DNA from: a virus
Lineage: Duplodnaviria > Caudoviricetes
Strand: one strand, 5' to 3'
Length of the DNA: 58,006 bases
IMG/VR virus record: IMGVR_UViG_3300033407_000015
Coordinates: 1-58,006 of that record
Below the pieces are notes generated by a model. It ran no database searches and had not been told where the DNA came from. It was given only the letters and a program-made list of their open reading frames with translations. The translations under genes and the position numbers were made by a program. Positions 21,701 to 48,131 of the stretch are shown in pieces. Position 1 is the first letter of the stretch; the number at the start of each line of letters is the position of its first letter.

Positions 21701-24700
21701 CGAGTTTTATGAGAGCTACCTCCAATCCTTCGGGTTGGCCCCCAGTCGAACAAATGACAGCACGCAATGCTTCGTCAACTCCACTGTTCTCGTCAGGACC
21801 ATGCGCGAACTCGGCTGGATCAACGGCTGCAAGGAAAAGCGGATTCCATCATGGGTCTTTGCGCAGGATGCATCACTGCGTCAGGCGCTCGTTCAGGGGC
21901 TTCTCGATTCTGATGGGTGGCGATCCCAGCAGACGGGCCCCGAACGACGCCATATTGAATTGGCGAATCGTGATCTCGTACGTGACATCAAGATACTGGT
22001 CGACGGCCTTGGCTGGACTTGCGGGAACATTCGAGAACGTGCTCCTCGCGAGGGCATGATTCGCAAGGGTCTTGTTCACTACCACAACGGAAAGGTGCAA
22101 GAGGAAGATCAGATCATTAAAGGCGGACTTACCTACACCATCACTTGGCATGAAACTTCGCTCGGTGAAGACAACTTCGCTCTCGAAAAAATTGAGAGCA
22201 TCGAGTTTGACTGCGACGAGGAAGTGTTCGACATCGGTGTTGCTGACACCGATCACAACTTCCTCTGCGATGGATTGGTCGTTCATAATTCCGTCGGAGA
22301 AGGCGCACGATGGATCTGGAAGCGTCTCGTCATGCTTGAAGATGCGGTCATGATCTACAAGCTGTGTCTTCGTGGCGACTCACAGATCTGGACCCCCGAA
22401 GGACGGAAAGCGATCAAGGATCTCAACGAGGGCGAAGAGGTCTACTCTTTCACGACCGAAGATCACCTCAAGAAGTCCAAGGTCGTCTACAAGAAGCACA
22501 ACGGTCAGGACAAGATCTATCGTGTCTACGGTCCGACGCGGGAGTTGTTCGCTAACAAGACCCACCCTGTTCTGGTCGAGTTGACCACACCCGAGGGTGC
22601 AAGGATACTCGAATACGTTGAGGTCCAGAACATCCGCCCCGGTTTCCATCGCTTCGTTACTCCTAGGAAGAACGACGATGATTACATTGATATCGGCGAG
22701 ACGGAGAGTAATGCTCTAGCGCTGGGCGAGTTACTGCAAGGGGAGAGGCTACCGGGTCGTGTTTTCCAAGCTTCGCGAGACATCAAGCGGCTGGTCTTGC
22801 GTGGTCTCACGAACTCCTTGAATGAGGAGACAGTTTTTTATCGAGCCGGTAGAAGGGCTGTAGACGACCTCCGAGACCTGGCTATGCAGGCTGGGTTCCT
22901 GGTCACCCTCCCTCTCGAAGAAGAAGATGACCGGTGGGTTGTCGCTCTCACATTTTGTGACGCGTCCGCATCGGCTACCATCGATGACATCGAGGAAGTT
23001 GGAACAGACGACATCTGGGATATCGGCGTCGAAGCAGATGAGCACAACTTTGTCGCTAACGGTGTGGTCGTACATAACACTCGGTCTCCTGCAAGGTACG
23101 CGTTCTACGTGGACGTCACCGACGTTCCCCCGAACCGCGTCGAGTCCTTCTTGAAGCGCGCTAAGCGTGACCTCAAGAAGAAGAAGATGGTCAACCCCAA
23201 TAACAACTTCCTTGACATGCGCTACAACCCGCTCTGTTTGTCGGGTGAGACCAAGATTCCACTTCTCGATGGGTCCGAAAAGACTCTGCTAGAGATGGTT
23301 GAGGCACACGAACGTGGCGAGGAGCAGTGGATCTATTCAGTCGACGTCGAAGATGGGAACAAGCTCGTCCCAGGCAAGGTTGTCTGGGCTGGTGGAACCC
23401 GAAAGAACGCGCAGCTTCTCAAGATTACTCTCGATAATGGCAAGTCGATTAAGGTCACGCCCGACCACAAGATGATTCGCCGCAGCGGTGAATTCTCTGA
23501 GGCACAGACGCTCAAGGTCGGCGACTCGTTGATGCCGTTCAGACAGCGCGTTAATCAGATTAGGACGGGTGGCCCTGCGGGTTACGAACAGATCTACGAC
23601 CCCTCCATCAAGAATTACGTGTTCACCCATCAGATGGTGGCTATAGACCTTGGTATCAAGACCAAGACAAGTGGCTACGTCATTCATCACGAAGACTGCA
23701 ACAAGCGGAACAACAATCCACGGAATCTAACGGAAATGGAATGGGGTGCGCACAAAGCGCTCCACCACAAGCTCTCGTGTGCCGCAGCAGAAAAGCTGAT
23801 CGCCTACAATCAGACGAACAAGGCGCGCGCCGAAACTGCGGCAACGAACCGCAAATACGACAAGCCTGCGCTAATGCGAGAAGCGATCACGTCGGAGATT
23901 CGTGAGAAGCAGAAGAAGGTCGCTAAGAAGTCGAAGACGGAATTCTGGCGGGACAAAGAGAAGGCAGCGCAAGCCTCCGAGAAGATGCGCTACGTCTATC
24001 CGGCTGCCTTCGTCGATGCCATTCGTCAGGTCATCGATGAGCAGGGGCCAAAGGTCGGCGCTCCAACTATTGCGCGCATCGCAAACGAGCGTGGACTGGT
24101 CGAACTTCTAATCGAGGCGAACCCAGACAAGGTTGGGAAGCTCAAGAACGTCCACCGCGACATGATTCGCTGGATGTGCCATAGCCTCGGCTTCAGAAAC
24201 TTCAAAGAGTTCAAGACAGCGGAACCCATTCCTCACAATCACAAGGTCGCGAAGATCGAATGGCTTGAAGAACGTGAAGACACCTTTACACTCACCGTTG
24301 ACGTAAGTCATACGTTCGCAACCTCTTGCGGTATCTTTGTAAAGAATTCCAACGACGAGGATTTCTTCATTGCGGTCCGGGACGGGCGTGCCCTCTCACG
24401 CGTCGAAGTGCTCTCTGGTCCGGATTACCAGAACACGGATGATGTCGAATACTTCCAGCGCAAGCTCCACGGCGCACTTATGGTGCCTCGCGCTTACATG
24501 GGGCAGGACGCGCCTATCCAAGGACGCGCTATCCTCTGTCTGTCTGGAGATACCAAGGTTCCGCTGCTAGATGGACGCACGCGGACGTTAAGAGAACTTT
24601 CTCAGGAGTATGGGCCAGAGGATGAGTTCTATGTCTATACAAGCGGCCCCGATGGAAAGATCACTGCTGGGCGCGCTCATTCGCCTCAGGTCACACGTCC

Positions 24701-26597
24701 CAATGCGGAAGTCTGGGAGATCGCACTCGACAATGGTCGAACAGTGCGAGGAACTCCCGATCATCCTTTCATGCTGCGCGATGGCTCCTACCGTCGTCTC
24801 GATGAGTTAAGTCCAGGCGATTCGTTGATGCCGCTCTACCGACGAGATTCGGAAAAGTCTCGCGATGGTATGGGTGGCTATGACATGCATCTCTGCCCGG
24901 TCACCGGTAAGTGGCGGTTTTCGCATCGTGCTGTTGCCAATTGGAAGTGGCGTGGGCGAGTCCTCAAGAGGGAAGGTCGCGTTATTCACCACGAGAACTT
25001 CGATAAGCGCAATAACGATCCGCGCAATCTAGGAGATCCGTTGGTTGAGGAGCACCTTCAGATCCATCGTGAGCACGCAGAGAAAACCATCCTGCGACCG
25101 GATGTCCGCGCTAAGGCCATTAAGAACTCACAATGGTGGACGCAGAGCGAGGAGTGCGCACAACTCTGTCGCGAGAATCTACACCGAGCGCGTAGTCCCG
25201 GGGGCGGTCAACGAGCTTGGTGTGAATCCGATGAGCACCGTCGTCTCAAGTCGGCGCAGATGAAACGTCAATGGGCTAAGCAGAGCAGCAAGCTCCGCTT
25301 GCGCACTCAGACTGATGAGTTCCGCAAGACATCATCGAAAAAGATGAAGGAGTCCATTGCGCTTGGCAAGATCAAGGTGGGTGGCGCAGACAATGTTAGG
25401 TGGCGTCATGACGCCGAATTTGCACGGCTGGTAGATGTAGCCGAGAGCTATCGTTGCACGTCGATGGGTGATCTTACAAGGTGGACCGGTTACTCATCAT
25501 GTTTGATCTATCGCCTACTTGAGGGCGAGGGTCTCACCTTCAGGGAGTTTGCCGATCTACATCTTGTCTATGGTTACGACCCGGGCGGGCACAAGAATCG
25601 GCGAGCCAAGAAGGTGGCTAAGGAACACCAGAGTGCAATTGAGTCGGTTGGTGTGCCAGGTAATCACAAAGTCGTCAGCATCAAGAAGTTGGACATCCGC
25701 GAAGACTGCTATGACTTCGTTGTGGATGGAACCCATAACTACGCGTTGGACGCAGGTGTCTTCGTCCACAACAGCAACGAAGATGTGAGGGCCGCGCGCG
25801 TCAGTCTTCAGATTCAGAAGGAACTGAAGAACGGTATTGAGCGCATCATCCGCACAGACCTCGCAGCCCGTGGCCATGGCATGCCCTGGAACGTAGACCT
25901 CGACGTCATGATGACTGTGCCGTCGAACATCTACGAGTTGGCGGCTATGGAAGTGAAGAACGCCCGAGCCGACTTCGCCGCCCGTATCCAGCCCTACGTG
26001 TCTATGCGTTGGCTTCTGGAGAACGTATTCAAGCTCTCTGACGACGAGATTCGTGAAGTCGAGAAGCAGCGCCAGCGAGAGGCTAATCTCGCTGATGCCA
26101 TGGGTATGGACCCATCATTCTCTGCTTTCACCGGCGGTCGTCCTCCCGACCAGGAACCGGAGATGGGTCTGGGCGCAGGCGGTGATCCTGGCGCAGCAGG
26201 TCTACAAGAGGTTCCTGGTGGCGGAGGTGGTGGACTTCAGGAAGTCCCAGGTAGTGGGCTTCAAGAGGTTCCTGGTGCCGGGCTTCAGGAAGTTCCAGGT
26301 AATGGACTCGAAGAAGTACGTCCTGGGAAGAATACCTCTCGTAATGAGTGGCGTGCTTACGACCGTCGTCGGCGTCTTGAGGAGAATCGCTACCGCGAAT
26401 CGCGCCAAAACCATCAGAAGTTGGTGGATATGATCGGAAATCTTCAACAAAATGATGCGGGGTTTGCCCGCCGGTTGGATGAAACAACTTCCTTCCTCAA
26501 GGACTTCAAGTCCGCGACCATGAAACGCGTCAATGGGCGTCTAGTAAGCACTCCTTCGGCAGGAGCGGGTCGACCCACTGCTGGTGGTGGCGCGTAG
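18798..26597 (+). CDS. T4 gp20-like portal protein precursor with six inteins (2599 aa; ~639 aa spliced)
   Basis: Joined exteins give gp20 motifs PYG.S..ARWIWKRLVMLEDAVMIY.L.R.P.R..FYVDV, EDFF, DVEYFQRKLHGALMVP; located upstream of the protease and MCP. Confidence 0.92.
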   Translation: MAIQDRALRALRRVFGDDRDERERAESPSADALRHAPSSTYAIWGREDIGGLLSVSQNLMDRYADYEAMNDYPDIRCFTGDMKVYVVAENNVIVPTPIKTICESTETFQILAYDQKKKSLVSVAAEHPRISGRNAPVLRLELSNGETLRCTPEHKIFCVEPRPGYVEAKELKKGAFIVGARAGFETETKSMLTVKTAGGVWLNEDPIPDSFASEVYDITTSTHNLLVNGVICHNSAFHYFANDATQPNMDNGRVCWIQSPDQAVVDMGDTLIKRRLRLEDDLFSIAYSLCQYGNCLPGSSKVWLEGAVEEISNVTVGDRVVLYSAGEATTAPVLAVHNNGVKPVFRLRTKHREILATAEHPFFVDGPDGPIWKNLENLRKGDGIFICTQSPPNGEPFSLAHLVPAVSDLTLPERITPEFCRLYGYAVADGWITDHELNKSVGICSGNKPEHASYYLSLAQSFAPRSYLTEADGTFKLHIGSVAFADLFKKLGWSNGAHVKRMPGWIWDLPDEHREAMLQGISDGDGHTTRTSTDNHTRVSIELCNRALVEDIKTLADGLGYKCGNVRYRKRTGVASYNQIGDPIYAGESWTITYYDARLPQPFAVERILSIEEAGEEEVFDLTIDHPQHNFVADGVVVHNCFEEVLVTENGVVGLNNLAAPTMRRVEKLNGSLIGYVQDVTGRFTANQDELRRMLAGALTIPKHVALFEDWQVAHFRSRSTTRRSPYGVCIPADGVVETVEGPKPIIDVKVGDRVFCRHAGMLRTTKVIDHVSNGVRPVFRLKTTHREIRATGNHPFLARVGEINRWKPLEELRVGDEIVAATALPGLGNRPPLGRRLRSFNDEASVRLTEAGITAIRSASSRGKYGPRDAGLRKVFADRGLTRSQMSDILAGASSLSLGTYKAILGNLGLVVAVGDFEVYHGPGAVVPTLPDFVDESFCRFWGFMLGDGWLTDEQVYFARGVDEDVNEFYESYLQSFGLAPSRTNDSTQCFVNSTVLVRTMRELGWINGCKEKRIPSWVFAQDASLRQALVQGLLDSDGWRSQQTGPERRHIELANRDLVRDIKILVDGLGWTCGNIRERAPREGMIRKGLVHYHNGKVQEEDQIIKGGLTYTITWHETSLGEDNFALEKIESIEFDCDEEVFDIGVADTDHNFLCDGLVVHNSVGEGARWIWKRLVMLEDAVMIYKLCLRGDSQIWTPEGRKAIKDLNEGEEVYSFTTEDHLKKSKVVYKKHNGQDKIYRVYGPTRELFANKTHPVLVELTTPEGARILEYVEVQNIRPGFHRFVTPRKNDDDYIDIGETESNALALGELLQGERLPGRVFQASRDIKRLVLRGLTNSLNEETVFYRAGRRAVDDLRDLAMQAGFLVTLPLEEEDDRWVVALTFCDASASATIDDIEEVGTDDIWDIGVEADEHNFVANGVVVHNTRSPARYAFYVDVTDVPPNRVESFLKRAKRDLKKKKMVNPNNNFLDMRYNPLCLSGETKIPLLDGSEKTLLEMVEAHERGEEQWIYSVDVEDGNKLVPGKVVWAGGTRKNAQLLKITLDNGKSIKVTPDHKMIRRSGEFSEAQTLKVGDSLMPFRQRVNQIRTGGPAGYEQIYDPSIKNYVFTHQMVAIDLGIKTKTSGYVIHHEDCNKRNNNPRNLTEMEWGAHKALHHKLSCAAAEKLIAYNQTNKARAETAATNRKYDKPALMREAITSEIREKQKKVAKKSKTEFWRDKEKAAQASEKMRYVYPAAFVDAIRQVIDEQGPKVGAPTIARIANERGLVELLIEANPDKVGKLKNVHRDMIRWMCHSLGFRNFKEFKTAEPIPHNHKVAKIEWLEEREDTFTLTVDVSHTFATSCGIFVKNSNDEDFFIAVRDGRALSRVEVLSGPDYQNTDDVEYFQRKLHGALMVPRAYMGQDAPIQGRAILCLSGDTKVPLLDGRTRTLRELSQEYGPEDEFYVYTSGPDGKITAGRAHSPQVTRPNAEVWEIALDNGRTVRGTPDHPFMLRDGSYRRLDELSPGDSLMPLYRRDSEKSRDGMGGYDMHLCPVTGKWRFSHRAVANWKWRGRVLKREGRVIHHENFDKRNNDPRNLGDPLVEEHLQIHREHAEKTILRPDVRAKAIKNSQWWTQSEECAQLCRENLHRARSPGGGQRAWCESDEHRRLKSAQMKRQWAKQSSKLRLRTQTDEFRKTSSKKMKESIALGKIKVGGADNVRWRHDAEFARLVDVAESYRCTSMGDLTRWTGYSSCLIYRLLEGEGLTFREFADLHLVYGYDPGGHKNRRAKKVAKEHQSAIESVGVPGNHKVVSIKKLDIREDCYDFVVDGTHNYALDAGVFVHNSNEDVRAARVSLQIQKELKNGIERIIRTDLAARGHGMPWNVDLDVMMTVPSNIYELAAMEVKNARADFAARIQPYVSMRWLLENVFKLSDDEIREVEKQRQREANLADAMGMDPSFSAFTGGRPPDQEPEMGLGAGGDPGAAGLQEVPGGGGGGLQEVPGSGLQEVPGAGLQEVPGNGLEEVRPGKNTSRNEWRAYDRRRRLEENRYRESRQNHQKLVDMIGNLQQNDAGFARRLDETTSFLKDFKSATMKRVNGRLVSTPSAGAGRPTAGGGA
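19026..19499 (+). mobile_element. Portal intein 1 (mini-intein, 158 aa)
   Basis: CFTGD...CTPEH...ICHN|S; no endonuclease. Confidence 0.9.
19680..20717 (+). mobile_element. Portal intein 2 (LAGLIDADG, 346 aa)
   Basis: CLPGS...TAEH...LYGYAVADG...LQGISDGDG...VVHN|C. Confidence 0.9.
20985..22289 (+). mobile_element. Portal intein 3 (LAGLIDADG, 435 aa)
   Basis: CIPAD...TGNH...FWGFMLGDG...VQGLLDSDG...VVHN|S. Confidence 0.9.
22365..23078 (+). mobile_element. Portal intein 4 (238 aa, eroded LAGLIDADG remnant)
   Basis: CLRGD...NKTH...ALALGELLQG/LVLRGLTNS remnants...VVHN|T. Confidence 0.88.
23235..24347 (+). mobile_element. Portal intein 5 (HNH-containing, 371 aa)
   Basis: CLSGET...TPDH...VIHHEDCNKRNNNPRNL...FVKN|S (penultimate Lys). 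Confidence 0.9.
24537..25772 (+). mobile_element. Portal intein 6 (HNH-containing, 412 aa)
   Basis: CLSGDT...TPDH...VIHHENFDKRNNDPRNL...FVHN|S. Confidence 0.9.
26199..26327 (+). repeat. GLQEVPG tandem peptide repeat (4 exact plus 1 degenerate) in the portal C-terminal tail
   Basis: GLQEVPG x4 then GLEEVRPG; codons have diverged synonymously. Confidence 0.9.
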
Positions 26598-28766: not shown

Positions 28767-30635
28767 ATGACGACCAACACAATGAGTCCACAGGTGGAGC
28801 AGCGCTTCCGCGCTAGGGCATCCACTCGTCGGCCTCTGGTCGACAACATGCTGGTGGAGTCCGAGGGCTTCACCAAGATGACTGTCCTGGCCGAAGACTC
28901 TCAGCGCAAGGGTGTTCTGATTGTCGAAGGTCTGGTCGGTATCTGTGGAAAGGCGACGAAGAACCTTCGTCTCTACACAGAATCGATCATGAAGCGGGAG
29001 ATCAAGCGTCTCCAGGAGCGGATCGACGCACGATCTCTTCTGGCTGCGGTGGATCACCCAAACGACGGTAAGTCACGTATTCGTGAGGCCGGCGCTATCT
29101 GCGTTGGTCTCCGATGCGAAGCTGATGGTCGGATCATCGGTAAGTACGAGATCGTCGAAGACTCGACGGGTGGTCGTGACCTCGCCGCGTTCCTGCGTGC
29201 AGGTGCCTCCATCGGTATGTCTTCGCGTGGCCTGGGCTCGACCTCAGTCAACATGGAAGGTGTTCACGTCGTTGGCGAGGACTTCAAGCTTCACGGATTT
29301 GATTTCGTCGCTGATCCAGCCTGTGAGACGGCCTACCCCACCTTGGTGTCTGAGGACATTGATGCGGCTACGGTCGATGAGAACCAACTTCGCGCAACCT
29401 TCAGTAACCTTGTCGAGCAGATCGAAGATCGCGCTCGTCAAGCCGGTGCTGAGATCGCTGAGGAAGAGGTCCGGGCTCAGGTCGAAGAGGAGTTCAAGCT
29501 GGCGCTCGATGAAGCCGGCGGCAAGCTTCGCGAGGACATCAAGCTTCAGGTGGAGTCTGAGATCCGCGAGCAGCTTCGCGAGGACTTCTCAGTCAAGTTG
29601 CTGAAGGCGCTCCAAGAGCAGCGGACTCAAATCGAGTCGGTCGTTCGTTCCGAGCTTCTCTCCGACCCGAAGGTTGGTGCCGCTAAGCGCTTCATGGAAG
29701 ACCTGGCAGCGAAGCTCGTCCCGTTCGCTCCTGCTCCCGACCAGCAAGTTGTCATGGATGACTTCGAGAGCAAGCTCTTGGCGTTGCGCGAAGAGGTCGA
29801 GCAGAACGAGGCTGCGGTCCACGCCAAGGACGGCGTCATCAATGAGATGTCTGAGCGCGTGGAACAAGCCGAGCAGGCCGCACGATCGCTAGGCTACAAG
29901 CTCTACATTGAACGGTGTCTTGAGGGTCGTGAAAACGCCGCTCAACTCCGTGAGATGATTGGGATCCCTGACGGCACTGAAGCTGCCGACGAGCTTCGTG
30001 ATCGCGTCAGCGCTGTGCTGCAACAGGTCACAGAGGCAGAAGATCAGGCAATGACCCAGGCGCAGGCCCAGGTCAAGGTCAAGGAGCACAAGGCCGATCT
30101 GGCGCGCAAGAAGGCAGAGGTCGCAACCGAAGAGTTCGATCGCTTCCGCGTCGAGATGGAACAACGCTTCGAGCGACTCTCAACTCGCATGGGCGCACAG
30201 ATTCACGAAAAGGACCGAGCCCTCTCTGAGGCTCTCGGCCATATCGAGAAGCTGGAAGGCACGGTCAGCAAGTCTCGCCGTCAAGTCCAAGAGGCTGATC
30301 TACATGCTTACGCGGCTCGCCGCGTGATCGGTCACCCTCGTGCAAACGACATCCTCAAGCTCGTCGAGAGCGGACGGGTGACTTCCAAGGGCCAGGTCCA
30401 GCAACTCGCAGAGCAGTGGGACAACGCTGCAAGCGAGCCTGGTGGAGTCAGTGAGCGCATTCGTCGCTCACTTGGACGCGGTCGTGAGGCACCTACAGAG
30501 GATGACCAACAGCGTTTCAGTCAACTAATGGAAGGCCAACAGTCCATTCCCGGACTTGAGGGCTTCGATACCACCATGGGAGAACTCCGCGCGCTGTCGG
30601 GGATTGACCATGATTCTTTCAATGGCAGATTCTAA
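28767..30635 (+). CDS. T4 gp21-like prohead protease fused to a long coiled-coil scaffold (gp22-like)
   Basis: N.R.Y, VDHP, IGMSSRGLGS and FDFVADPA motifs, followed by ~430 aa of E/Q/A-rich coiled coil. Confidence 0.9.
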   Translation: MTTNTMSPQVEQRFRARASTRRPLVDNMLVESEGFTKMTVLAEDSQRKGVLIVEGLVGICGKATKNLRLYTESIMKREIKRLQERIDARSLLAAVDHPNDGKSRIREAGAICVGLRCEADGRIIGKYEIVEDSTGGRDLAAFLRAGASIGMSSRGLGSTSVNMEGVHVVGEDFKLHGFDFVADPACETAYPTLVSEDIDAATVDENQLRATFSNLVEQIEDRARQAGAEIAEEEVRAQVEEEFKLALDEAGGKLREDIKLQVESEIREQLREDFSVKLLKALQEQRTQIESVVRSELLSDPKVGAAKRFMEDLAAKLVPFAPAPDQQVVMDDFESKLLALREEVEQNEAAVHAKDGVINEMSERVEQAEQAARSLGYKLYIERCLEGRENAAQLREMIGIPDGTEAADELRDRVSAVLQQVTEAEDQAMTQAQAQVKVKEHKADLARKKAEVATEEFDRFRVEMEQRFERLSTRMGAQIHEKDRALSEALGHIEKLEGTVSKSRRQVQEADLHAYAARRVIGHPRANDILKLVESGRVTSKGQVQQLAEQWDNAASEPGGVSERIRRSLGRGREAPTEDDQQRFSQLMEGQQSIPGLEGFDTTMGELRALSGIDHDSFNGRF

Positions 30636-30647
30636 GGAGGGACACCC

Positions 30648-32093
30648 ATGTTCCAGGCACGTTCAATGATTGCCGAGAGTGCAGAAGGGTGCGCCCTCGC
30701 CGATCACGGTATGGTTCGACAGTACGTCAACAAGTGGGCTCCCCTGCTTGAGGGCATCGAGTCCGAACTCGACAAGTTCACCCCTCGCGGGCAGGCCCAG
30801 TACGTGAAGTCCATCGCGGCTTTCATGTTGGAGAACCAGGCTCGACACCTGAAGCGGCTGTCGGAAGAGACGCGGGCCTTGTCGGTCGGTCCCTTCCTCA
30901 AGTTCGTCTTCCCCGTCATTCGACGGGCCGCCGTGCGCTTGGTCGCGACGCAGATTGCGTCCGTCCAGCCCATGACTGGTCCCATCGGTGGCGTGGCCTT
31001 CTATCGTCCGCGCTACGCGACGGACAAGGGCCAGGTCGTAGCGGGCCAGGAGATGAACAAGACGTTCAACAAGTGGTACTCGTCGAACTTCATCGACGGC
31101 GAGGCGATTGGTACCGGTAACGGCACCAACACCGTCTTCTCGACGAACCTGAAGTTCCCTCGGGTTCTCTCAGGCACGATGCGTGTTCTCGTTCGCACCG
31201 CTGGTACCCGTCAGACGGGCACCCTGGTCGGAACTGACAACGGCGCTGGCGGTCTGACCGCTGTTGCTGGCGGGCCTCTCGCTGGCGGCACGATCAACTA
31301 CCAGGCCGGTCAGCTTCAGGTCAACTTCGCCGCCGCTCCCGCGACGACCGACGAAGTCCTGATCGAGTACAAGTACGACAACGAGTTGAACCCTCGGATC
31401 CCCGAGGTTCAACTGGACATCGCGATCCAGGAGATCCGCGCCGAGAGCCGCAAGCTCAAGTCGCTGGCCTCCGTCGAGGCTGCGGACGACCTCCGCGCTC
31501 TCTGGGGTCGTGACATCGACGCCGACCTCGTTGCTCACATGAGCGACGAAATGACGGCGGAGATCGACCGCGAGATCGCCGGCACGGCGCTCAACGCAGT
31601 CGAGGGTCTGGCCGTTCTGGACTGGGACCGCGCGACTCCTTCGGGCGTCAGCGATCCTGAGCACCTCCAGTCGCTCGTGATCCGCATGTCCGAGTCGAGC
31701 CACATCGTTCACCGTCGCACCCAGCGTGCGCCGACGAACTGGTGCATCACCTCGTCCGAGATCGCCGCCCTTCTGGAGACCATGCCCGGATTCGCTTCCG
31801 TGGACGATGGTCACGTCTACCAGGGAGGCATCATGAAGGGTGGTGTCCTCAACCGGAAGTGGGTGATCTACGTCGATCCGCTCTTCCCGCAGGACGAGAT
31901 TCTCATGGGTTACCAGGGTCCTTCGATCCTGGACACGGGCTTGATCTACAGCCCTTACGTGCCCATGGAGATCACGCCCAACTTTGTCGATCCAAATGAC
32001 TTCAGCCTGCGCCGCGCGATCCGCACGCGTCACAAGATCACCTTGATCCGGCCGGAGTTCTTCTCGAAGGTCAAGGTCTCGAACCTGAACTAG
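30648..32093 (+). CDS. Major capsid protein, T4 gp23-like
   Basis: KWAPLLEG, LENQ, SVQPMTGP.G..FY, AESRKLK, EIDRE, YSPYVP, PNDF..R..I.TR. Confidence 0.95.
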   Translation: MFQARSMIAESAEGCALADHGMVRQYVNKWAPLLEGIESELDKFTPRGQAQYVKSIAAFMLENQARHLKRLSEETRALSVGPFLKFVFPVIRRAAVRLVATQIASVQPMTGPIGGVAFYRPRYATDKGQVVAGQEMNKTFNKWYSSNFIDGEAIGTGNGTNTVFSTNLKFPRVLSGTMRVLVRTAGTRQTGTLVGTDNGAGGLTAVAGGPLAGGTINYQAGQLQVNFAAAPATTDEVLIEYKYDNELNPRIPEVQLDIAIQEIRAESRKLKSLASVEAADDLRALWGRDIDADLVAHMSDEMTAEIDREIAGTALNAVEGLAVLDWDRATPSGVSDPEHLQSLVIRMSESSHIVHRRTQRAPTNWCITSSEIAALLETMPGFASVDDGHVYQGGIMKGGVLNRKWVIYVDPLFPQDEILMGYQGPSILDTGLIYSPYVPMEITPNFVDPNDFSLRRAIRTRHKITLIRPEFFSKVKVSNLN

Positions 32094-35124: not shown

Positions 35125-36603
35125 ATGTTCACTCCGCGCACGCTACTGATTCTTGAGCAGCACGGGTTCGCTCTGCTGAAAGAAGCAGAGGAGCAGCATC
35201 CTGCTGTCGACTCTAAGCCTGCGATGACGTTGCCGACGGATCATCTCCCGGATGAGGTGAAGCACGTTGCTCATTCGATCAACGGTGCTGGCGGTAAGGC
35301 CATGCTTATTGGTGGCGCTGTGCGTGACTCACTACGCACCCATTTTGGCCATTCCGATAAGAAGCCCAAGGACTTCGATATGGAAGTCCACGGGATGCAT
35401 CCAGACCACTTGACTAGCCACCTCAGCACTCTTGGAAAGAACAAGGTTGTTGGTGAGAAGTCGTTTGGCATCAACAAGCTCAATAAGGGTGGGCACGAAT
35501 TCGATATCTCGATTCCCTCCCACGCCAGCTTTAAGCAGGGAGAGCATGGCAAGGCTGACCCGCACATGCCTGTCTCAAAGGCGGGGCTTCGTCGCGATTT
35601 CACCATGAACTCAGTTGCAATGGATCCTACCACCGGACATGTCCATGATCCTCAGAACGGAATCCACGACATCAAGCACAAGATCCTCAGGCACTCGACC
35701 AAAGACGCCTTTGAGGAGGCGAATGGAAATGGCCCCATTCGGATCATGCGTGGGGCTCAGTTTGCCGCTCGTCACGGACTAAGCGTCCATCCAAAGACCA
35801 TCGAACTGATGAAGAAGGCGTCGCATCGCCTTGCGACGTCAGAGGTCGCGTCAAGCCGTGTTCATGGTGAATGGAAGAAGCTCATCACCAAAGGTCATCA
35901 TCCCTCGAAAGGGTTAGACGTCTTGAAGCAATCTGGTGCGCTCAAGCACCTGCACCCAGAGCTTCACGGGATGCACGACGATCACTGGGATCACACTAAG
36001 CGAGCAATGGAGCACGCGCACGACGCAACTCACGATCATGCGCATAAGGAGGCGATCCGTTACGCCACGTTGTTCCATAAGACGCATGCCGGCAAAAGCG
36101 CTAACGAGGTTGCAGAGCATGCGCGCAAGCACTTCGGTGTCAACAAGGGGATCGCTGCGCAGATTGGAAGCCTAGTCGAGCACGGACACAAGATTCGTGA
36201 GCTTCACGACTCTAAGGACAAAAATTCTCCTGCCCACGTCCGCCGACTCGCACACTCACTAGGCTCTGCCAATATCGATCAATTAGCTCACGTCGCTGAG
36301 GCGCGTCACAAGGCAGGTAGTGAAGATCCTCACCACGCTGGCGAATGGTTGCGCAAACAAGCAAGAAAGCATGGAGTCCATGATGCTGCGGAGAAGCCCA
36401 TTCTGACCGGTAAACACCTCAAACAGCTTGGCGTAAAGCCTGGTCCACACATGGGCAAGATCATGCAACACGTCCACGGTCTTCAGCTTGATGGTCATGT
36501 TCGATCCGAAGAGGACGCTCTCCATCACGCTCGACGTATCGCTCACGAGGGTGGTCACCTCAGTGAATCCAACTCGTTCTACAACCGAATTTTCAGTTCT
36601 TAG
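35125..36603 (+). CDS. Class II CCA-adding/poly(A)-polymerase-family tRNA nucleotidyltransferase, His-rich
   Basis: GGAVRD..PKDFD, RRDFTMN, DP..G..DI..K.LR, PIRIMRGAQFAAR, R..GEW.K, C-terminal LTG..L..LG.KPGP..GKI. Confidence 0.88.
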   Translation: MFTPRTLLILEQHGFALLKEAEEQHPAVDSKPAMTLPTDHLPDEVKHVAHSINGAGGKAMLIGGAVRDSLRTHFGHSDKKPKDFDMEVHGMHPDHLTSHLSTLGKNKVVGEKSFGINKLNKGGHEFDISIPSHASFKQGEHGKADPHMPVSKAGLRRDFTMNSVAMDPTTGHVHDPQNGIHDIKHKILRHSTKDAFEEANGNGPIRIMRGAQFAARHGLSVHPKTIELMKKASHRLATSEVASSRVHGEWKKLITKGHHPSKGLDVLKQSGALKHLHPELHGMHDDHWDHTKRAMEHAHDATHDHAHKEAIRYATLFHKTHAGKSANEVAEHARKHFGVNKGIAAQIGSLVEHGHKIRELHDSKDKNSPAHVRRLAHSLGSANIDQLAHVAEARHKAGSEDPHHAGEWLRKQARKHGVHDAAEKPILTGKHLKQLGVKPGPHMGKIMQHVHGLQLDGHVRSEEDALHHARRIAHEGGHLSESNSFYNRIFSS

Positions 36604-36609
36604 AGAGAC

Positions 36610-36736
36610 CGGCTACCGCTTGAAAGACGGTGCGGCAAGCTCGTGGTAAGTTGTAGGGTAACCACGGGAAGCCGCGCTATGATTTGCCCGTAAGCTTAGC
36701 CTTGTTGATTCTAGTCCCACCGAAGGGAGGTGCGGG
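36610..36736 (+). ncRNA. Candidate structured cis-regulatory RNA (attenuator/riboswitch-like)
   Basis: GAAA-capped hairpin 36615-36631, cgtggt/accacg stem, alternative partners for 36669-36675, adjacent terminator. Confidence 0.45.
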
Positions 36737-36770
36737 AAAGACGGCGGCTTGCGGAGGTCGTCGTCTTTTT
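36737..36770 (+). terminator. Intrinsic terminator
   Basis: aaagacggcggctt-gcgg-aggtcgtcgtcttttt, a long stem with G-U pairs and a U tract. Confidence 0.8.
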
Positions 36771-36789
36771 CGTTCACTGTGAGAGCCCC

Positions 36790-37452
36790 ATGAGCCATAC
36801 CACTAGTCTTTACGGTCGGGTATTCGTCGAGGGTTTCTCCAACAATCTCAGGCAAGCCCTAGCCGTCGGTATGCAGACCCCTGAGCGCTACGGTGGGCTG
36901 CCCCAGAAGGCTACGAAGCCTAAGAAGATTGCGAAGTTCAAGGAGCCTCTTACGAAGCGCCTGAAGCGCCACGCGACTGACGTTGGACGAACCATGTTCC
37001 CGCCGCTCAATGACTCTGTTGAACACTCTCTCTTTGACCAAATCTTCACGGAGTCCAAGGAGAAGATGGGAATCGTCGGAAGTCTCAAGAAGATTGGGCG
37101 CAACGCCCATGAATACATGGATGTTTCAGACCCATCACACCCATGGAGCAAGATCATCTCTACAGCACAGAAATGGTCCGACCAGGGCGGCGCTCTCGCC
37201 GGGGGTGATAAATCAAAATCTCAGATCAAGCCTGAGAAAAAGTCTGATTGGGGTGCCGACGCTTTGAAAACTACGAGTTCCTCGAAATCTGATGGGGGCT
37301 TAAAATCCCAGAATGCTCTGACGTCGCTCAAGAGGTCAATCAAGAGTGTTCAGCAGGACCGTGAGCGTAAACAGCGCACCAGTCGAAAGCTTCAGAGCAT
37401 GAGCAAACCTCAATCTAGGGTCCCCTCGACCCCCCGCACCAAAGTAAAGTAA
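36790..37452 (+). CDS. Lys/Ser-rich candidate internal head protein
   Basis: ATG 36790; SLYGRVFVE and SLFDQIFTE motifs. Confidence 0.6.
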   Translation: MSHTTSLYGRVFVEGFSNNLRQALAVGMQTPERYGGLPQKATKPKKIAKFKEPLTKRLKRHATDVGRTMFPPLNDSVEHSLFDQIFTESKEKMGIVGSLKKIGRNAHEYMDVSDPSHPWSKIISTAQKWSDQGGALAGGDKSKSQIKPEKKSDWGADALKTTSSSKSDGGLKSQNALTSLKRSIKSVQQDRERKQRTSRKLQSMSKPQSRVPSTPRTKVK

Positions 37453-37601: not shown

Positions 37602-37970
37602 ATGGCGGCCAGCAGCAAAACAGTCAAGTATCAGGGCAGCTTCTCGGTGCATGATGCATCAAATGTCGCCTCCCCTAACAAGCCGATCAAGGATCTCACG
37701 CTGACCGTGGGTCAGGTCCAGTCGTCGGATCCGATGTGCATCCCTGGATCGACCACGGACTTCAGCGTTCCTTTCGGTGCGTTGACATTGGCGAAGCGGA
37801 TTTACATCAAGACCGATCAGTCGGTCACGATGAAGTTCAATCAGAACACCGACACTGGGTTCTCCTGGAAAGGCGAGGGTGTGATTCCGTCTGAGGATGG
37901 CGTCACAGCCATCTTCATCTCCACGGGCGCCAACGACACCAACGTCGAAATCGTCGTCGCAGGAGACTAG
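37602..37970 (+). CDS. Small beta-rich virion-type protein
   Basis: GGAG RBS; 122 aa. Confidence 0.6.
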   Translation: MAASSKTVKYQGSFSVHDASNVASPNKPIKDLTLTVGQVQSSDPMCIPGSTTDFSVPFGALTLAKRIYIKTDQSVTMKFNQNTDTGFSWKGEGVIPSEDGVTAIFISTGANDTNVEIVVAGD

Positions 37971-39030: not shown

Positions 39031-39867
39031 GTGACAATGGATACTGAATTTCAAACATGGAAGAAGGCTGTAGAGATCCCTACGGATCGTCTTGTCTTCA
39101 CCGATTGGAATTGCAACGAGATGAGCCAGGAGAAGCTGGCCCATCTTCAAGCAGAGATCGAGAACGACGAGGATCCTGAAGATCCTCACTTTGATGAGCC
39201 GCTCCAGGTGATTCCGATTCAGGAGTCCGAGGGCAAGTATCTCGTTGTAGGTGGAGAACACCGCACCAAGATCGCGCGCTCGCTAGAGATGACAGCGGTC
39301 CCGTGCGTCATTCGTACCGATCTCGCAAAGAAGAGTCGGAAGGACTTGATCCTCTGGTCCGTCCGTCGGAACAACCTGCGCGGTCGAATCAACGCTCAGA
39401 AGTATGCCGAGATGGAAGCTGAACTGGTCAACCAACACGGTATGACCTCCGAGGCTGCCCGCCGATCCATGTTGATCGACGGCGATCTGGCTAAGGCGCT
39501 TCGGGCAACGCTAGCGGTTCGAGCAAACGAGAACAACGAATCAGACGACGGTCACGACGGTACCCGCCAGTTTGGTGATGAAGTTGATAGCGCGCGTGAA
39601 GATCGCCGCTCCAAGGAAGAGCTTCTTTCGGCGCTCAAGATGGCCGAACAAGACGTGCTCCTTGACTCTGCTGACACTGTCAAGCATGGCTATTTGTTTT
39701 TCGCTCAGGGTAAGAAGGGCCAGATGCATCTGGTCGTTGACGAATCCCTAGAGCTTCACGCACTCATCAAGCAGATGGTTTCCACCTGCAAGGGCAGTGA
39801 CGCAAAGGTCGATGACTTCTTGACCAACGCGATCAGCGCTCAACTGAACAACTTGGAGACAAAGTGA
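39031..39867 (+). CDS. ParB/Srx-like N-terminal domain protein
   Basis: WNCNEM...FDEPLQV...YLVVGGEHR..A..L.M..VPCVI...NNLRG. Confidence 0.75.
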   Translation: MTMDTEFQTWKKAVEIPTDRLVFTDWNCNEMSQEKLAHLQAEIENDEDPEDPHFDEPLQVIPIQESEGKYLVVGGEHRTKIARSLEMTAVPCVIRTDLAKKSRKDLILWSVRRNNLRGRINAQKYAEMEAELVNQHGMTSEAARRSMLIDGDLAKALRATLAVRANENNESDDGHDGTRQFGDEVDSAREDRRSKEELLSALKMAEQDVLLDSADTVKHGYLFFAQGKKGQMHLVVDESLELHALIKQMVSTCKGSDAKVDDFLTNAISAQLNNLETK

Positions 39868-42800
39868 TGCAGGCACACAAGAACAAGATCGGCGCTACTC
39901 ACAGCCGTCCTGCGATGAGGATGTGGGAGTGGTTCGACATGTGGGCTCTCTACGAAGAGGTCACGCGTCGCTTTGGGTCTTCGAACTTGTTCGAAGGCAA
40001 AGACGAAGATGAGAATCCCTACTCTGAAGAAGAGAAGGCAAAGCAGCACGATCACTATCTGAAGCACTTCAGGGAGGTGCTTCACAACCACAACACCATG
40101 ACCCCTGAGGAGAGCAAGAAGCGTCTCCAGCATGTCGGTGCGTGGGCGGCAGAGACCGGTGCGGCGAACCGTCATGCTGGTGATCGAGGCCGACCCGCGC
40201 CCGCACTTGGCCCGTCTAAGGGTGAAGAAGAAGTCAGTCGCCATCCTGACGAAGAGGTAAAGGACTGGGAGCGTCGTCGCAAAAACCCCAAGGAGCAAGA
40301 AAAGGCTTACGCGAAGCGTAAGGAGGAGCATGAGCGGAAGCACGGTAAGCGCTCCGCAGAGCACGCGTCAGGTCTTCGTGGTGATGGTCACGATCTGAAG
40401 TCTGCGCACTCGGTCGGTAAAATCGTGCGCTCGGTAAGCGATAGCAAGCACGGGCACATCCTCCTTAAGGCTGCCAAGTCGCTCGCCGGTGATCCGCATA
40501 AGTCACCTGAGCGTGGCAAGGGTGTCGCAGGCAGAACTTCGCCTGAGGAAGACAAGGCATACGTCGCCGCTACACTGATGACAGGACATGGTGAAGCTCA
40601 GTCGGCACCAGAGAATGAAGAGACCAGGCGTCTTCACTCTCGGCTTCATGCTCGTCGCGCTCACGCAGAGACAGAAGCGGGCGCCCGAAAGTCAGACGAG
40701 TCTGAAGAGAAGTATGAGGCCCGTGTCAATGCGGCTGAGGGGAAGATCCCGCCCAACCACAAGCACGGCTATGCATCTATCGCGAACGATACGAATCACA
40801 CCGAAGATCAAGCGAAGTCGCATCGTTCACGAATTTTCGGTAAGCGCGCCGGTAAGAGCGGTTCTTCGCCAATCCGTACTCTGGCCATGCAAGCAATCTC
40901 ACACGCCGAGAGCGGTGGTTCGCTAGATCACAAGTGGGTTGCAAAGAGCGCGAAGGAACTCGCGATCATGCGACGCCGCTCCATGGAGGGCAAGGGCACC
41001 AAGAGCGACAAGCTCAAGGGAGCCGTTAGTAGGGGACAGGCTCTAGGTGGCACCGACGATGAGGCGAAGGGAATGGAGGGCATTTCTCAGTCCTCCAGCA
41101 AGCGCGCTCAGATGGTGAAGCGGGGCGAACAGAGCAGCCCCAAGTGGCACCACCCATCCTCGAAGCAGGCAAAGGCTGGTCATCCCAGCATGACTGCTGT
41201 TCCGCATGAAGCGGTAAACAAAGCGCTTGGACACAAGAAGACGGCAACTATCGACATCACCAGTGCGGCGAAGAAGCTCAAGGATAAGGGTCACACCACA
41301 GGTCAGATCGCTGATCTGCTCAAGCATCCTCATGCTGAAGTGATGCGGATGGTGCATGGCTTCTCGCCAACTGGGATCGAGAGTGGAACTGGTGCTTCTG
41401 GTCGACGGAAGGGTTCTCGTGAGAAGCGCGATCAAGAGCCTGTCGCAAAGGCGATGCGCAGTGAGAAAGAGGCAAAGCTTGCTAAGAGCAAGACGCCTAC
41501 TGAAGCCGTCAAGGCTGACCTTCATCGCCTTTACCCGCTCCGTGACAAGGTCGGCGAGGGCGACGACGAGGAGGGTGAGGATCACTCTGCGACTTTCCAC
41601 AAGCGCGTCAAGAAGATGTACAAATCGGCGCCCCACCAAAAGGACATCCAAAAGAGGGCTGGTGGAGCAGTAGCAAAGGACGCCCCTGAGAGCGAGATCC
41701 CTGAGCGTATGGGTCTGCATGGCGTTCCATCAGCAGGACGCGCTGGTTTTGGTGGCGGCAAGGTTAAGGGATTGATGAGCCCACTTGACCATCCTGGTGA
41801 CTTCGATAAGACGGCCTCGCTTAAGAAGCATGGTGGAGATGAGAAGAAGGTTGCGGCAGACCAGAAGAATCACCAAGCGAAGCTCGATGCTTTTCACGAC
41901 AACCTGGCTGAAAAGCACGCTGGTGTCCATGCAGCTATGGATCACGTTCTTGCAAACGTGCGCGACCGAAATCACCCACTAACCGTTCAGCACCGTGAGC
42001 ACCATGACGCAATCAAGCTCGCGAAGGACACGAAGAACAACGAGGAACTAGCCAAGCTGGAGAAAGAGGGCAAGAAGAAGAACATCATGGGCGACATCAT
42101 TGCCCACCACCTGAATCGCAGTGCTGATGATGAAAACGTCCAGAAGGCATTGGGTGTTTCTCGTGCCCGCGCTCGTGCAGCACTCACCAACATCATGGGT
42201 CGTCTGGAGAAGCACGGCGAGCACTCCATGGCGGCTAACATCGCTCGTGGTGGTGCGCAGCAGAAGTCTCGCGCTGGTGGCGAACGAGGTTCTGACAAGA
42301 AGCGCGCTGGCGACCCACTCTCCCGTGCCCGGGTTCGTGTTCCAGGCGATGAGTCTGGTGCTGGTGGCGACATAGAGTCACCGACCAAGCACAAGCCTGA
42401 GCGGTTCATTGAGCCGGCTAAACCGACCAAGAAGGTCAAGCTTTATCGTGCAGGCGATAAGCCTGTTGCATCGCCCCTCAGCAAACTGGACAAGTCTGCC
42501 GCGCTTGCGGATGCTCGTGCAGGTCGTAAGCCACCAGTGGCGCGAGGAAAGTCTGTAGGCACAGCAACCGTACCAGTGCCTTCTCTCGCAACCCGTGCCC
42601 TTGACCTACGCGCTCAGGCCGCTCGTAGCGCAGGTGGCGCGACCCGGGTGGCCAAGCAACAGGTCGCTCAAGGTCGTAACATCGCACAGCACCGTGCTCA
42701 GGTGAAGAGCCCGTCTGGTGCCGGTGGCCCCATCGGTCCTTACGTGTCGTCTGCCGCAAAGAAGGCAAAGGCTCGTATCGCTGCGCGTCAGGATGCGGCC

Positions 42801-43433
42801 GAGGCCGCCAGGAAGTCGCTCGCCGGCAAGGTCGCGGCGGCTCCTGCCGACAAGAAGGGTCCAGCGGTTGACCCGGCCGCCGGTTTCCCCAAGAAATCGG
42901 GTTTGGAGCGGGTGATTGCCAGTACAGTGCCGTCGAGGTCAGGTGGCCGCGCGAAGATCACTAAGACCACGTCTCCAACGCGGGGACAAAAGCAAGAACC
43001 ACCACAGCCCGGAACCCCGGGTGGTCGTAAACCTGCCGGCGTCGCTTCATCAGACCTGATTCGAGAACGACCAACAGGCGAGAAGGGTGTCGTCTATCAG
43101 CAGCACGCTGCTGGTGGTCGCAGTGCTCCTGGTGTCAGGGTCCGCCCCAAGAAGAAGGACGAGCCGTGGGAGCGGAAGGTTGGAGACGTTTTCGGGGCAC
43201 CTCGTTCGCCAGTGACGCCGCCTAAGGCTTCGGCGCCTTCCGGAGAGCCTTACACTCGCACAGGGCAAAGCCAGATTCGAACCAGCGGTGGCGCGAAGAA
43301 GTCCGAGGGCGCGAAGAAGTTGGACGCGATCTTCAAGAAGCCGGAGAACAAGGAAGAGTCTCTCTTCCTTCGCACCCGACTTGTCGTCAACGAAACGGCA
43401 TCCTTCCCAAACCGAGTTTCGGTTTTCGCCTAA
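39864..43433 (+). CDS. Large Lys/His/Arg-rich low-complexity protein, candidate internal head protein
   Basis: 1189-aa open frame with basic composition; LYEE/LFEG near the N-terminus and SLFLRTRLVVNE near the C-terminus. Confidence 0.7.
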   Translation: MMQAHKNKIGATHSRPAMRMWEWFDMWALYEEVTRRFGSSNLFEGKDEDENPYSEEEKAKQHDHYLKHFREVLHNHNTMTPEESKKRLQHVGAWAAETGAANRHAGDRGRPAPALGPSKGEEEVSRHPDEEVKDWERRRKNPKEQEKAYAKRKEEHERKHGKRSAEHASGLRGDGHDLKSAHSVGKIVRSVSDSKHGHILLKAAKSLAGDPHKSPERGKGVAGRTSPEEDKAYVAATLMTGHGEAQSAPENEETRRLHSRLHARRAHAETEAGARKSDESEEKYEARVNAAEGKIPPNHKHGYASIANDTNHTEDQAKSHRSRIFGKRAGKSGSSPIRTLAMQAISHAESGGSLDHKWVAKSAKELAIMRRRSMEGKGTKSDKLKGAVSRGQALGGTDDEAKGMEGISQSSSKRAQMVKRGEQSSPKWHHPSSKQAKAGHPSMTAVPHEAVNKALGHKKTATIDITSAAKKLKDKGHTTGQIADLLKHPHAEVMRMVHGFSPTGIESGTGASGRRKGSREKRDQEPVAKAMRSEKEAKLAKSKTPTEAVKADLHRLYPLRDKVGEGDDEEGEDHSATFHKRVKKMYKSAPHQKDIQKRAGGAVAKDAPESEIPERMGLHGVPSAGRAGFGGGKVKGLMSPLDHPGDFDKTASLKKHGGDEKKVAADQKNHQAKLDAFHDNLAEKHAGVHAAMDHVLANVRDRNHPLTVQHREHHDAIKLAKDTKNNEELAKLEKEGKKKNIMGDIIAHHLNRSADDENVQKALGVSRARARAALTNIMGRLEKHGEHSMAANIARGGAQQKSRAGGERGSDKKRAGDPLSRARVRVPGDESGAGGDIESPTKHKPERFIEPAKPTKKVKLYRAGDKPVASPLSKLDKSAALADARAGRKPPVARGKSVGTATVPVPSLATRALDLRAQAARSAGGATRVAKQQVAQGRNIAQHRAQVKSPSGAGGPIGPYVSSAAKKAKARIAARQDAAEAARKSLAGKVAAAPADKKGPAVDPAAGFPKKSGLERVIASTVPSRSGGRAKITKTTSPTRGQKQEPPQPGTPGGRKPAGVASSDLIRERPTGEKGVVYQQHAAGGRSAPGVRVRPKKKDEPWERKVGDVFGAPRSPVTPPKASAPSGEPYTRTGQSQIRTSGGAKKSEGAKKLDAIFKKPENKEESLFLRTRLVVNETASFPNRVSVFA

Positions 43434-47510: not shown

Positions 47511-48131
47511 ATGTCGCGCCGCAAAGAGCCTGTCGAACCGCGCTTCTGGGCGAAGGTCTCTAAGGGAGCGTCGGACGAGTGTTGGCAATGGATCGCCGGG
47601 AAGGGCGGACGGGGCTATGGCATGTTCTGGTTAGATGGGAAACAGGTGAAGGCGCATCGTGTGGCCTGGACACTTGAACATGGTCCGATCCCAGAAGGTA
47701 AGGGCTATCACGGGACCTGCGTCTGCCATAGCTGCGATAACCCATCTTGCGTGAACCCCGCTCATCTCTTCATCGGCACGAATGCTGACAACCAAGCCGA
47801 TATGCGCAGAAAGAGTCGCGGCGTAAATACATCAGAACTTCGCGCGGAACGGATCACGTTTCGAGGGAAGTCGAAGACCATTACTGAGTGGGCGAAAGAT
47901 CTCGGCATCCCTCGCGGGACCATCACCAACCGTCTTTACGCTGATTGGAGCGTCGACAGAGCACTGTCGGAACCTCCGACGCCTGAGAAGCGATTTCTCT
48001 ATCACGAGGGGACGCGGCTGTCGGTGACCGAGTGGTCAAAGCGGACGGGAATCCGCTATCACACGATCCTCGCGCGTCTAGACCGTGGATGGTCGGTTGA
48101 GCGAGCACTCACAACGCCAAGTAGAGGTTAG
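47511..48131 (+). CDS. HNH homing endonuclease with two C-terminal DNA-binding repeats
   Basis: [35 protein letters not shown]; TEW...GI...TI..RL...WSV.RAL twice. Confidence 0.9.

Follow-up and report, generated by a model that had tools for sequence, protein, structure and literature searches.

A 58,006-base viral DNA record (IMG/VR record IMGVR_UViG_3300033407_000015, analysed over its entire length and referred to here as the window) comes from a T4-like jumbo phage. Its capsid gene is followed, 3 kb further 3′ and past two homing-endonuclease-like genes, by a gene for a histidine-rich homologue of class II tRNA nucleotidyltransferases, which we call the CCA homologue. Short peptides with Leu/Ile-X-Glu (L/I-x-E) sequences lie at both ends of the predicted protein. 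The best-supported reading of these peptides, which we advance tentatively and at slightly less than an even chance, is that they are head-loading tags similar to the capsid targeting sequences (CTSs) of T4. Packaged enzymes let a phage act on its host before its own genes are expressed. To our knowledge, few such cases are known, namely T4 Alt, anti-restriction internal proteins, and virion RNA polymerases. Phage CCA enzymes and CTS-loaded cargo in T4 are already known; what appears new in the predicted protein is the combination of a two-ended tag, histidine recoating, and a broken EDxxR motif. A search of the literature outside supplements and subscription journals turned up no description of a tRNA nucleotidyltransferase inside virus particles.

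The assignment to the tRNA nucleotidyltransferase family, made in a preliminary description of this DNA, is borne out by Pfam, PHROG, and predicted fold. The Pfam PolyA_pol head domain (PF01743) matches residues 60–189 with 55.4 bits (cut-off 23) and PolyA_pol_RNAbd matches residues 218–281 with 38.7 bits (cut-off 22); a third tRNA-nucleotidyltransferase domain scores under its cut-off. PHROG 2244 (tRNA nucleotidyltransferase) covers residues 58–448 (E 3e-49). An AlphaFold2 model built from an input alignment of 20 sequences has a mean predicted local distance difference test score (pLDDT) of 88.3 and a predicted template modelling score of 0.83, with a confident body spanning approximately residues 31–475. 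Foldseek places this model closest to the CCA-adding enzyme 1miv_A among PDB entries (E 2.7e-15; template modelling score 0.77 by target), and 46 PDB chains of CCA-adding, A-adding, and poly(A) polymerase (PAP) enzymes match at E 1e-9 or better, which indicates that the modelled chain adopts the head-neck-body-tail fold. Relatives of the phage were recovered through the capsid protein in a viral contig collection, which yielded 12 loci with 77–98% identity. Three related loci, L194 (capsid 98% identical), L195 (92%), and L197 (92%), are compared below.

Further analysis of the CCA homologue revealed that its two ends differ from the folded body. The pLDDT values in ten-residue blocks are 52, 45, and 69 over the first 30 residues and 51 and 45 over the last 17, so the non-catalytic, flexible extensions claimed in the preliminary description are supported by the model. 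The N-terminus reads M-F-T-P-R-T-L-L-I-L-E followed by nine residues that end in L-K-E. The orthologues P0002, P0005, and that of L194 keep M-[FY]-x3-T-L-x-[IV]-L-E, with a second [LI]-x-E approximately 10–15 residues further on; the database gene call P0006 starts without the leader. In L194, an AAGGAG sequence lies 8 nucleotides (nt) ahead of the GTG start that includes the leader, and three synonymous changes leave TLLILE intact. At the C-terminus, the tail of P0002 reads L-S-E then G-C-S-F-Y-S-R-I-F-T and that of L194 reads L-A-E then N-Y-S-L-Y-A-R-V-F-S-A; the tail is bounded by L-x-E in all three of the closest orthologues. These features recall T4, in which gp21 is described as cutting after Glu in L/I-X-E, internal proteins as being targeted to the prohead core by N-terminal propeptides of 10–19 residues (the CTSs), and the packaged enzyme Alt as being trimmed at both termini (outlined in PMC9026906). 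A terminal, propeptide-like peptide with L/I-x-E, the feature that characterizes a CTS, is predicted at both ends of the CCA homologue.

The preliminary description regarded the motifs at both ends as shared with other proteins. For the C-terminal tag this proved correct. A regular expression built from the homologues' tails only, S[LF][YFH].R[IV][FV], was scanned over the 17,835 residues encoded in the window and produced two matches, as compared to 0.013 expected from 300 shuffles: the tail of the CCA homologue itself and residue 26 of the next open reading frame (ORF). When the 12-mer at residues 479–490 was scored over 16,903 positions against a null of 60 shuffled proteomes (best scores: mean 21.6, standard deviation 2.8, maximum 30), the best non-self match, M-S-H-T-T-S-L-Y-G-R-V-F (score 32), began at the likely start Met of the next gene. 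The second match, V-N-E-T-A-S-F-P-N-R-V-S, ends three residues before the C-terminus of an 1189-aa basic protein; its score of 25 is not significant by itself, and it is the register and terminal position that count. In the small basic protein encoded by the next gene, the N-terminal tag SLYGRVF is followed by V-E-G, a second copy occurs at residues 100–108 of the long frame, and the N-terminal tag is kept in L194, L195, and L197. The tail tag of the 1189-aa protein (K 11.0%, R 8%, H 5.0%, Y 1.1%; isoelectric point (pI) 10.0) follows [VIL]-x-E and is kept in three of the three orthologues seen, reading I-N-E then S-S-S-L-L-N-R-T-P-L-S-V in L194 and L-D-E then S-K-T-T-L-F-S-R-L-A-G-I-V in the L197 contig. 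A broader regular expression, written after these cases were known, gave three matches in the window (0.34 expected) and six in the relative G003 (74 kb, 74 ORFs; 0.44 expected). Four of these six are terminal, and all six fall within four adjacent genes downstream of the capsid gene. By its sequence, the C-terminal peptide of the CCA homologue is a member of a tag family, S-[LF]-[YFH]-x-R-[IV]-F, that also occupies the ends of fast-evolving basic proteins whose genes adjoin the head genes.

Two resemblances in the window were considered and dropped: that of the C-terminus of the protease-scaffold protein (…SFNGRF) to the tag, which is weak and not conserved in relatives, and by-eye matches of the leader at the N-termini of the 1189-aa protein and an 843-aa protein, for which a profile scan gave nothing above shuffles. 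A complex prediction that paired the protease-scaffold protein with residues 463–492 of the CCA homologue scored 0.00, without controls, and counts neither way. The structure model of a 122-aa neighbour (37602–37970) was unusable (mean pLDDT 49).

The tag-bearing genes also differ from their surroundings in rate of change. Structural proteins of the window and L194 are 80–98% identical (capsid 98%, protease 91%), whereas the tag-bearing proteins are far less alike (CCA homologue 43%, small basic protein 52%, 1189-aa basic protein 51%). This disparity suggests that the cargo-like genes diverge fast or are exchanged. Within one gene block the unevenness is sharp, with the tagged basic proteins at 51–52% as compared to 91–98% for capsid, protease, and a ParB-like protein.

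A second type of leader was found among distant CCA homologues. P0007–P0018 and P0121 open with …L-Y-R-[TS]-P-L-x-L-x-E, after which comes a conserved D-L-G-Y-H-H module; in several of them the motif appears a second time at the end of the protein. A search with the leader's DNA pattern identified two viral contigs (G002) whose capsid protein is 72% identical to that of the window. In G002, five genes encode proteins that begin with the leader, and all five are located in the 4.4 kb that follow the capsid gene, with three on the plus strand and two on the minus strand; two more pattern matches were dismissed as chance, as they fall in non-coding frames of minus-strand tail genes. The cluster (L177, 15111–20000) carries the leader in the form L-[YFH]-R-S-P-L…E, and two of its proteins also contain a D-L-G-Y-H-H-like module. 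None of the three complete leader-bearing proteins has a Pfam or PHROG family or a PDB sequence match. For one of the leader-bearing proteins Atlas returned only sub-threshold, protein-kinase-like leads, and an ADP-ribosyltransferase-like motif in one of them was unsupported and dropped. The first 70 residues of one leader protein match the CCA homologue P0018 (E 6e-10). A single leader thus serves unrelated cargos, as in T-even internal-protein loci. The G002 contigs stop before any CCA gene could be visible. Searches with the enzyme itself were less informative. Alignment-based scans of viral and metagenome contigs for the closest CCA homologues gave, among the matches listed, identities of 38% or less; a single-protein scan for the context of the CCA homologue returned none, and the same scan with P0009 returned six loci at 34–38%.

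The composition of the CCA homologue is equally unusual. A script counted 61 His (12.4%), 2 Tyr (0.4%), and 44 Lys (8.9%), with a pI of 9.4, in agreement with the earlier hand count of about 60 His (~12%) and 2 Tyr, and located every motif quoted in the preliminary description (RTLLILE at residue 5, LLKE at 17, GGAVRD at 63, DFD at 83, RRDFTMN at 156, and LSESNSFYNRIF at 479). The excess is not genome-wide, since among 40 further window ORFs that were examined, His makes up 0.6–7.6%. Nor is it a trait of the family, since 265 homologues have a median of 2.6% (95th percentile 4.8%). The proposed comparison with homologues came out in favor of a real bias: the CCA homologue exceeds even the maximum among the 265 (11.6%). 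Scattered over the entire chain, the histidines stand in place of varied consensus residues, among them E, A, R, F, S, and K. High His content tracks the window-type tag. In the five homologues with an R-[IV]-F tail, the His contents are 12.4, 11.5, 11.6, 7.8, and 6.3%; P0005, with a leader but no tail tag, contains 7.0%, the tagless enzyme of L197 (P0014) 3.9%, and the enzymes of the sister lineage 3–4%.

The preliminary description called the catalytic head intact, which holds for only part of it. In a motif alignment of 29 sequences (the CCA homologue and 28 others), G63, G64, R67, D68, D83, D85, D127, and R156-R157-D158 are invariant; the metal-binding carboxylates and the RRD motif therefore stand, and all 45 invariant columns of the alignment are kept in the CCA homologue. 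The elements for nucleotide selection are changed. Motif D reads E-D-P-L-R in 27 of the 28 other sequences and E-A-N-G-N-G-P-I-R in the CCA homologue and the 70% identical P0002; the insertion follows E198, and the 27 sequences have Asp in the column of G203. In the loop region between motifs A and B, the near-invariant R132/R133 are replaced by Ser and His. Both the EDxxR disruption and the shortened loop are common to the CCA homologue and P0002. Because P0002 lies on an independent contig and has an identical motif D variant, the variant is likely under selection rather than decaying. The HD domain PF01966 has no match in the CCA homologue, and the 29-sequence alignment shows that the PQDxxWHPEGD segment is deleted and HD replaced; HD phosphohydrolase motifs occur in many relatives.

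According to the account in PMC2532741, EDxxR serves as an amino-acid template through which CCA-adding enzymes pick CTP and ATP and PAP picks ATP, and a flexible loop of 10–12 residues between motifs A and B, variable in sequence among enzymes, is needed for addition of the terminal A. With its template disrupted and its loop region shortened, the CCA homologue should therefore not be assumed to have CCA specificity. The CCA homologue resembles bacterial poly(A) polymerase I (PcnB) in its Pfam head domain and catalytic core, and solved PAP chains match its model with scores as good as those of CCA enzymes. However, PAP is described in the same source as keeping EDxxR, so the window protein departs from both CCA enzymes and PAP. 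With the class II CCA-adding enzymes of Bacillus stearothermophilus (1MIV) and Thermotoga maritima (5HC9) it has in common the Pfam head and RNA-binding domains, the fold, the motif A carboxylates, and the motif B RRD; it differs from them in its 12.4% His, E-ANGN-G-P-I-R in place of EDxxR, a loop region shorter by four residues, flexible L/I-x-E-bounded terminal peptides, and an identity of only 15–20% to the solved structures. Retention of the carboxylates and the ribose-sensing RRD, together with loss of EDxxR and part of the loop, points to nucleotide addition with a possibly non-CCA specificity. Judging from these motifs, the enzyme has probably remained able to add nucleotides to RNA 3′ ends, and its nucleotide specificity may differ from CCA.

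Viewed together with T4 internal proteins IPI-III and Alt, the head-loading reading has a close model. Shared features are short, propeptide-like peptides with L/I-x-E that, like those of Alt, occupy both termini, together with a gp21-family protease, a gp23-family capsid, and basic, diverse, fast-evolving cargo with the tag alone in common; T-even internal proteins are likewise described as diverse, with only the targeting sequence in common (PMC3012670). Unlike those of T4, the window tag belongs to a different sequence family, occurs also at C-termini, and has an RNA nucleotidyltransferase as cargo; the comparison is with descriptions of the T4 proteins, and the window system is described here from its sequence. 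By analogy, the tags would dock the CCA homologue to the prohead core during assembly, and the S77 prohead protease would remove them after Glu. The mature basic, His-rich enzyme would stay with the packaged DNA and enter the cell with it, where it could repair or tail the 3′ ends of tRNA or other RNA ahead of phage gene expression. We speculate that the histidines confer a pH- or metal-dependent charge. If this reading is true, an injected tRNA-end enzyme would represent a phage pre-empting tRNA-directed defences at entry, and a poorly known group of jumbo phages would have a loading tag that is simple and can be tested. For the enzymology of template-free polymerases, the 12% His and the altered EDxxR pocket are two independent oddities open to test.

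Several observations weigh against head loading. L195 is without a CCA gene at the locus. In L197 the gene lies downstream of the capsid gene beside HNH and RNase H genes and has neither leader nor tail, from which it follows that tags are unneeded for the role of that enzyme and that a position beside head genes is not diagnostic. The differences among L194, L195, and L197 identify the locus as a variable accessory slot by the head genes; the earlier statement that the gene sits among head genes is accurate in that it adjoins them, but the slot varies in relatives and nucleotide-metabolism genes occur in the same window. A promoter-like site 5′ of the gene, which is not above chance, and the hairpin and U tract 3′ of it also fit a free-standing accessory cassette. 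The leader is not shared in the manner of the tail: the best non-self matches of RTLLILE and LLKE in other window proteins are internal and weak, and these motifs, which the preliminary description had included among those shared, are kept among CCA orthologues. An ungapped profile of 13 G002-type leaders reached 6.9 at best over the window, as compared to a mean shuffled maximum of 8.6; as it found nothing significant there, the link between the two leader types rests on inspection by eye and a MAFFT alignment. No family is assigned to the neighbours that share the tail tag, nor are they known as virion proteins; the cleavage specificity of the S77 protease is assumed to be as in T4; and all annotated phages are distant (the best capsid and the best CCA identity are both 33%), with no cultured relative found. 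Finally, the window and six related loci yielded no phage tRNA genes.

The most serious alternative to head loading, which we regard as rather unlikely, is that the CCA homologue is an ordinary cytoplasmic tRNA 3′-end repair enzyme made after infection. Its terminal peptides would then dock to some other phage or host protein or serve in turnover, and its histidines would be a quirk of the lineage. CCA-adding enzymes are presented in PMC7824862 as a common RNA-repair gene of jumbo phages, 364 phage records contain a homologue, and those of Friunavirus are described as lying among replication genes (PMC8092837). The tagless L197 orthologue with its HNH and RNase H neighbours and the nucleotide-metabolism genes of the window fit this explanation as well. 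The CCA-adding enzymes of jumbo and other phages belong to the family of the window protein, which likewise lies in a large phage with other nucleic-acid-metabolism genes; they are described as RNA-repair enzymes, and the phage homologues listed are at most 33% identical to the window protein. Cytoplasmic repair leaves unexplained why L-x-E precedes the tail in each of the three closest orthologues, why it is the ends of neighbouring basic proteins that bear the tag, with no copy elsewhere in a relative's 74 kb, and why a related phage has a portable leader on unrelated proteins clustered 3′ of its capsid gene.

A quite improbable alternative holds that the peptides are inhibitory or localising propeptides through which the prohead protease times activity late in infection, with no loading into the head. 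L/I-x-E sites bound both peptides, the S77 protease gene lies 4.5 kb upstream, and prohead-protease cleavage is described as switching on other nucleotidyltransferases, the host CD-NTases (PMC12991175). However, in the model both peptides appear as flexible ends off the folded body with no sign of contact with the active site, although the contacts themselves were not open to inspection, and a tag on non-enzymatic basic proteins suits loading better than inhibition. Least probable of all is a dead or re-purposed internal protein that uses the CCA fold as basic, His-rich filler or as a DNA or RNA chaperone: loss of the EDxxR Asp, R132/R133, and the HD motif, the 4-aa insertion, the shortened loop, and the pI of 9.4 would fit, but D83, D85, D127, R156-R157-D158, and the 45 invariant columns are retained, and identity of the motif D variant in P0002 speaks for selection rather than decay.

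Head loading of the CCA homologue could form part of a broader scenario, which taken as a whole we consider improbable. In this group of ~280-kb jumbo phages, a portable tag of the form S-[LF]-[YFH]-x-R-[IV]-F (L-Y-R-[TS]-P-L in the sister lineage), bounded by L/I-x-E and placed at either end, would load a changing set of enzymes. One lineage would have recruited a tRNA nucleotidyltransferase, recoated it with histidine (possibly providing a charge switchable by pH or metal in condensed DNA), and rebuilt its selection pocket, so that the injected enzyme tails or repairs RNA 3′ ends with a non-CCA specificity before phage genes are expressed.

Table 1 Coordinates of the CCA homologue gene, its elements, and adjoining features in the window.
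Feature	Coordinates	Strand	Source
Prohead protease, Peptidase_S77 (PF03420, 6e-13), T4 gp21 family, with a long scaffold-like extension fused at its C-terminus	28767..30635	+	Pfam/PHROG
Major capsid protein, T4 gp23 family (PF07068, 1e-54)	30648..32093	+	Pfam/PHROG
Two HNH/HTH homing-endonuclease-like genes between capsid and CCA genes; not at this place in L194	32235..35002	+	
ORF, 492-aa His-rich class II tRNA nucleotidyltransferase homologue	35125..36603	+	Pfam, PHROG, fold
N-terminal leader (residues 1–20) with I9-L10-E11 and L18-K19-E20 sites; low model confidence	35125..35184	+	
Catalytic head domain (PolyA_pol, residues 60–189): GGAVRD, D83-x-D85, D127, R156-R157-D158	35302..35691	+	
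Flexible-loop region, motifs A to B; 27 of the 28 aligned relatives have 4 aa more	35515..35562	+	
Motif D variant F196-E-E198-ANGN-G203-P-I-R206; 4-aa insertion, Gly for Asp of EDxxR	35710..35751	+	
L479-S-E481 site, then 11-aa C-terminal tag SNSFYNRIFSS; low model confidence	36559..36600	+	
Intergenic stretch, 90% DNA identity to L194; hairpin and U tract	36604..36789 (186 nt)	+	
Small basic protein, 220 aa from ATG 36790; pI 10.3 (240-aa frame)	36790..37452	+	
1189-aa basic protein; tag in last 12 residues (nt 43395–43430), V-N-E before tag	39864..43433	+	

All plausible genes of the window lie on the plus strand. From the 5′ end, the order is a run of tail-fibre-like genes, a gp20-type portal, two genes without assignment, the S77 protease-scaffold, the gp23-type capsid, two homing-endonuclease-like genes, the CCA homologue, the small basic protein, three small conserved proteins, the ParB-like protein, and the 1189-aa basic protein. 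Dam, deoxynucleoside monophosphate kinase, ClpN-MazG, and ribonucleotide reductase follow from 46.9 kb, which places the nucleotide-metabolism genes ~10 kb downstream of the CCA homologue. CheckV rates the records of two relatives, 74 kb and 135 kb in length, as 26% and 48% complete, from which we estimate a genome of ~280 kb; the window is a fragment of such a T4-like jumbo phage genome. L194 is without the endonuclease genes, and its CCA gene comes after one small basic protein immediately 3′ of the capsid gene. The spot taken by the endonuclease pair in the window is occupied in L194 by a 277-aa tag-bearing basic protein. A third HNH/HTH homing-endonuclease-like gene of the window lies at 47511–48131.

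The spacer between the CCA homologue and the small basic protein contains a long hairpin with a U tract on its 3′ side (minimum free energy −74.3 kcal/mol, z −2.05), which is probably a terminator or the 5′ leader of the next gene. It is 90% identical to its counterpart in L194 although the adjoining CCA proteins are only 43% identical. No Rfam family matched in the window or in 36550–36850, and no shared 9-mer was common to three or more of 19 intergenic regions. The T4-type late promoter TATAAATA had five one-mismatch matches, as compared to 5.6 expected, none of them near the CCA gene.

Other genes of the window show features of their own. The gp20-type portal gene (18798–26597) has 2599 codons and contains five intein-splicing stretches together with Hint, LAGLIDADG, and HNH domains (Pfam); because its orthologue is 802 aa long in L194 and 793 aa in L197, the window portal has several extra inteins. 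The large subunit of ribonucleotide reductase (50459–54025) is also split by an intein with a LAGLIDADG domain. Between 148 and 15015 lies a series of acidic (pI 4.1–5.4), paralogous-looking proteins that are alike at their N- and C-termini; with one weak match to a tail-fibre PHROG, the series probably represents an array of fibre or receptor-binding genes. A 225-aa protein at 55124–55801 also matches tail-fibre PHROGs and has the second-highest His content of the window (7.6%). The gene at 48936–50126 encodes two Clp_N repeats fused to a MazG pyrophosphohydrolase domain. The last 4 nt of the ParB-like gene (39031–39867; its protein is 94% identical in L194) are also the first 4 nt of the 1189-aa protein gene (39864), which suggests that translation of the two is coupled.

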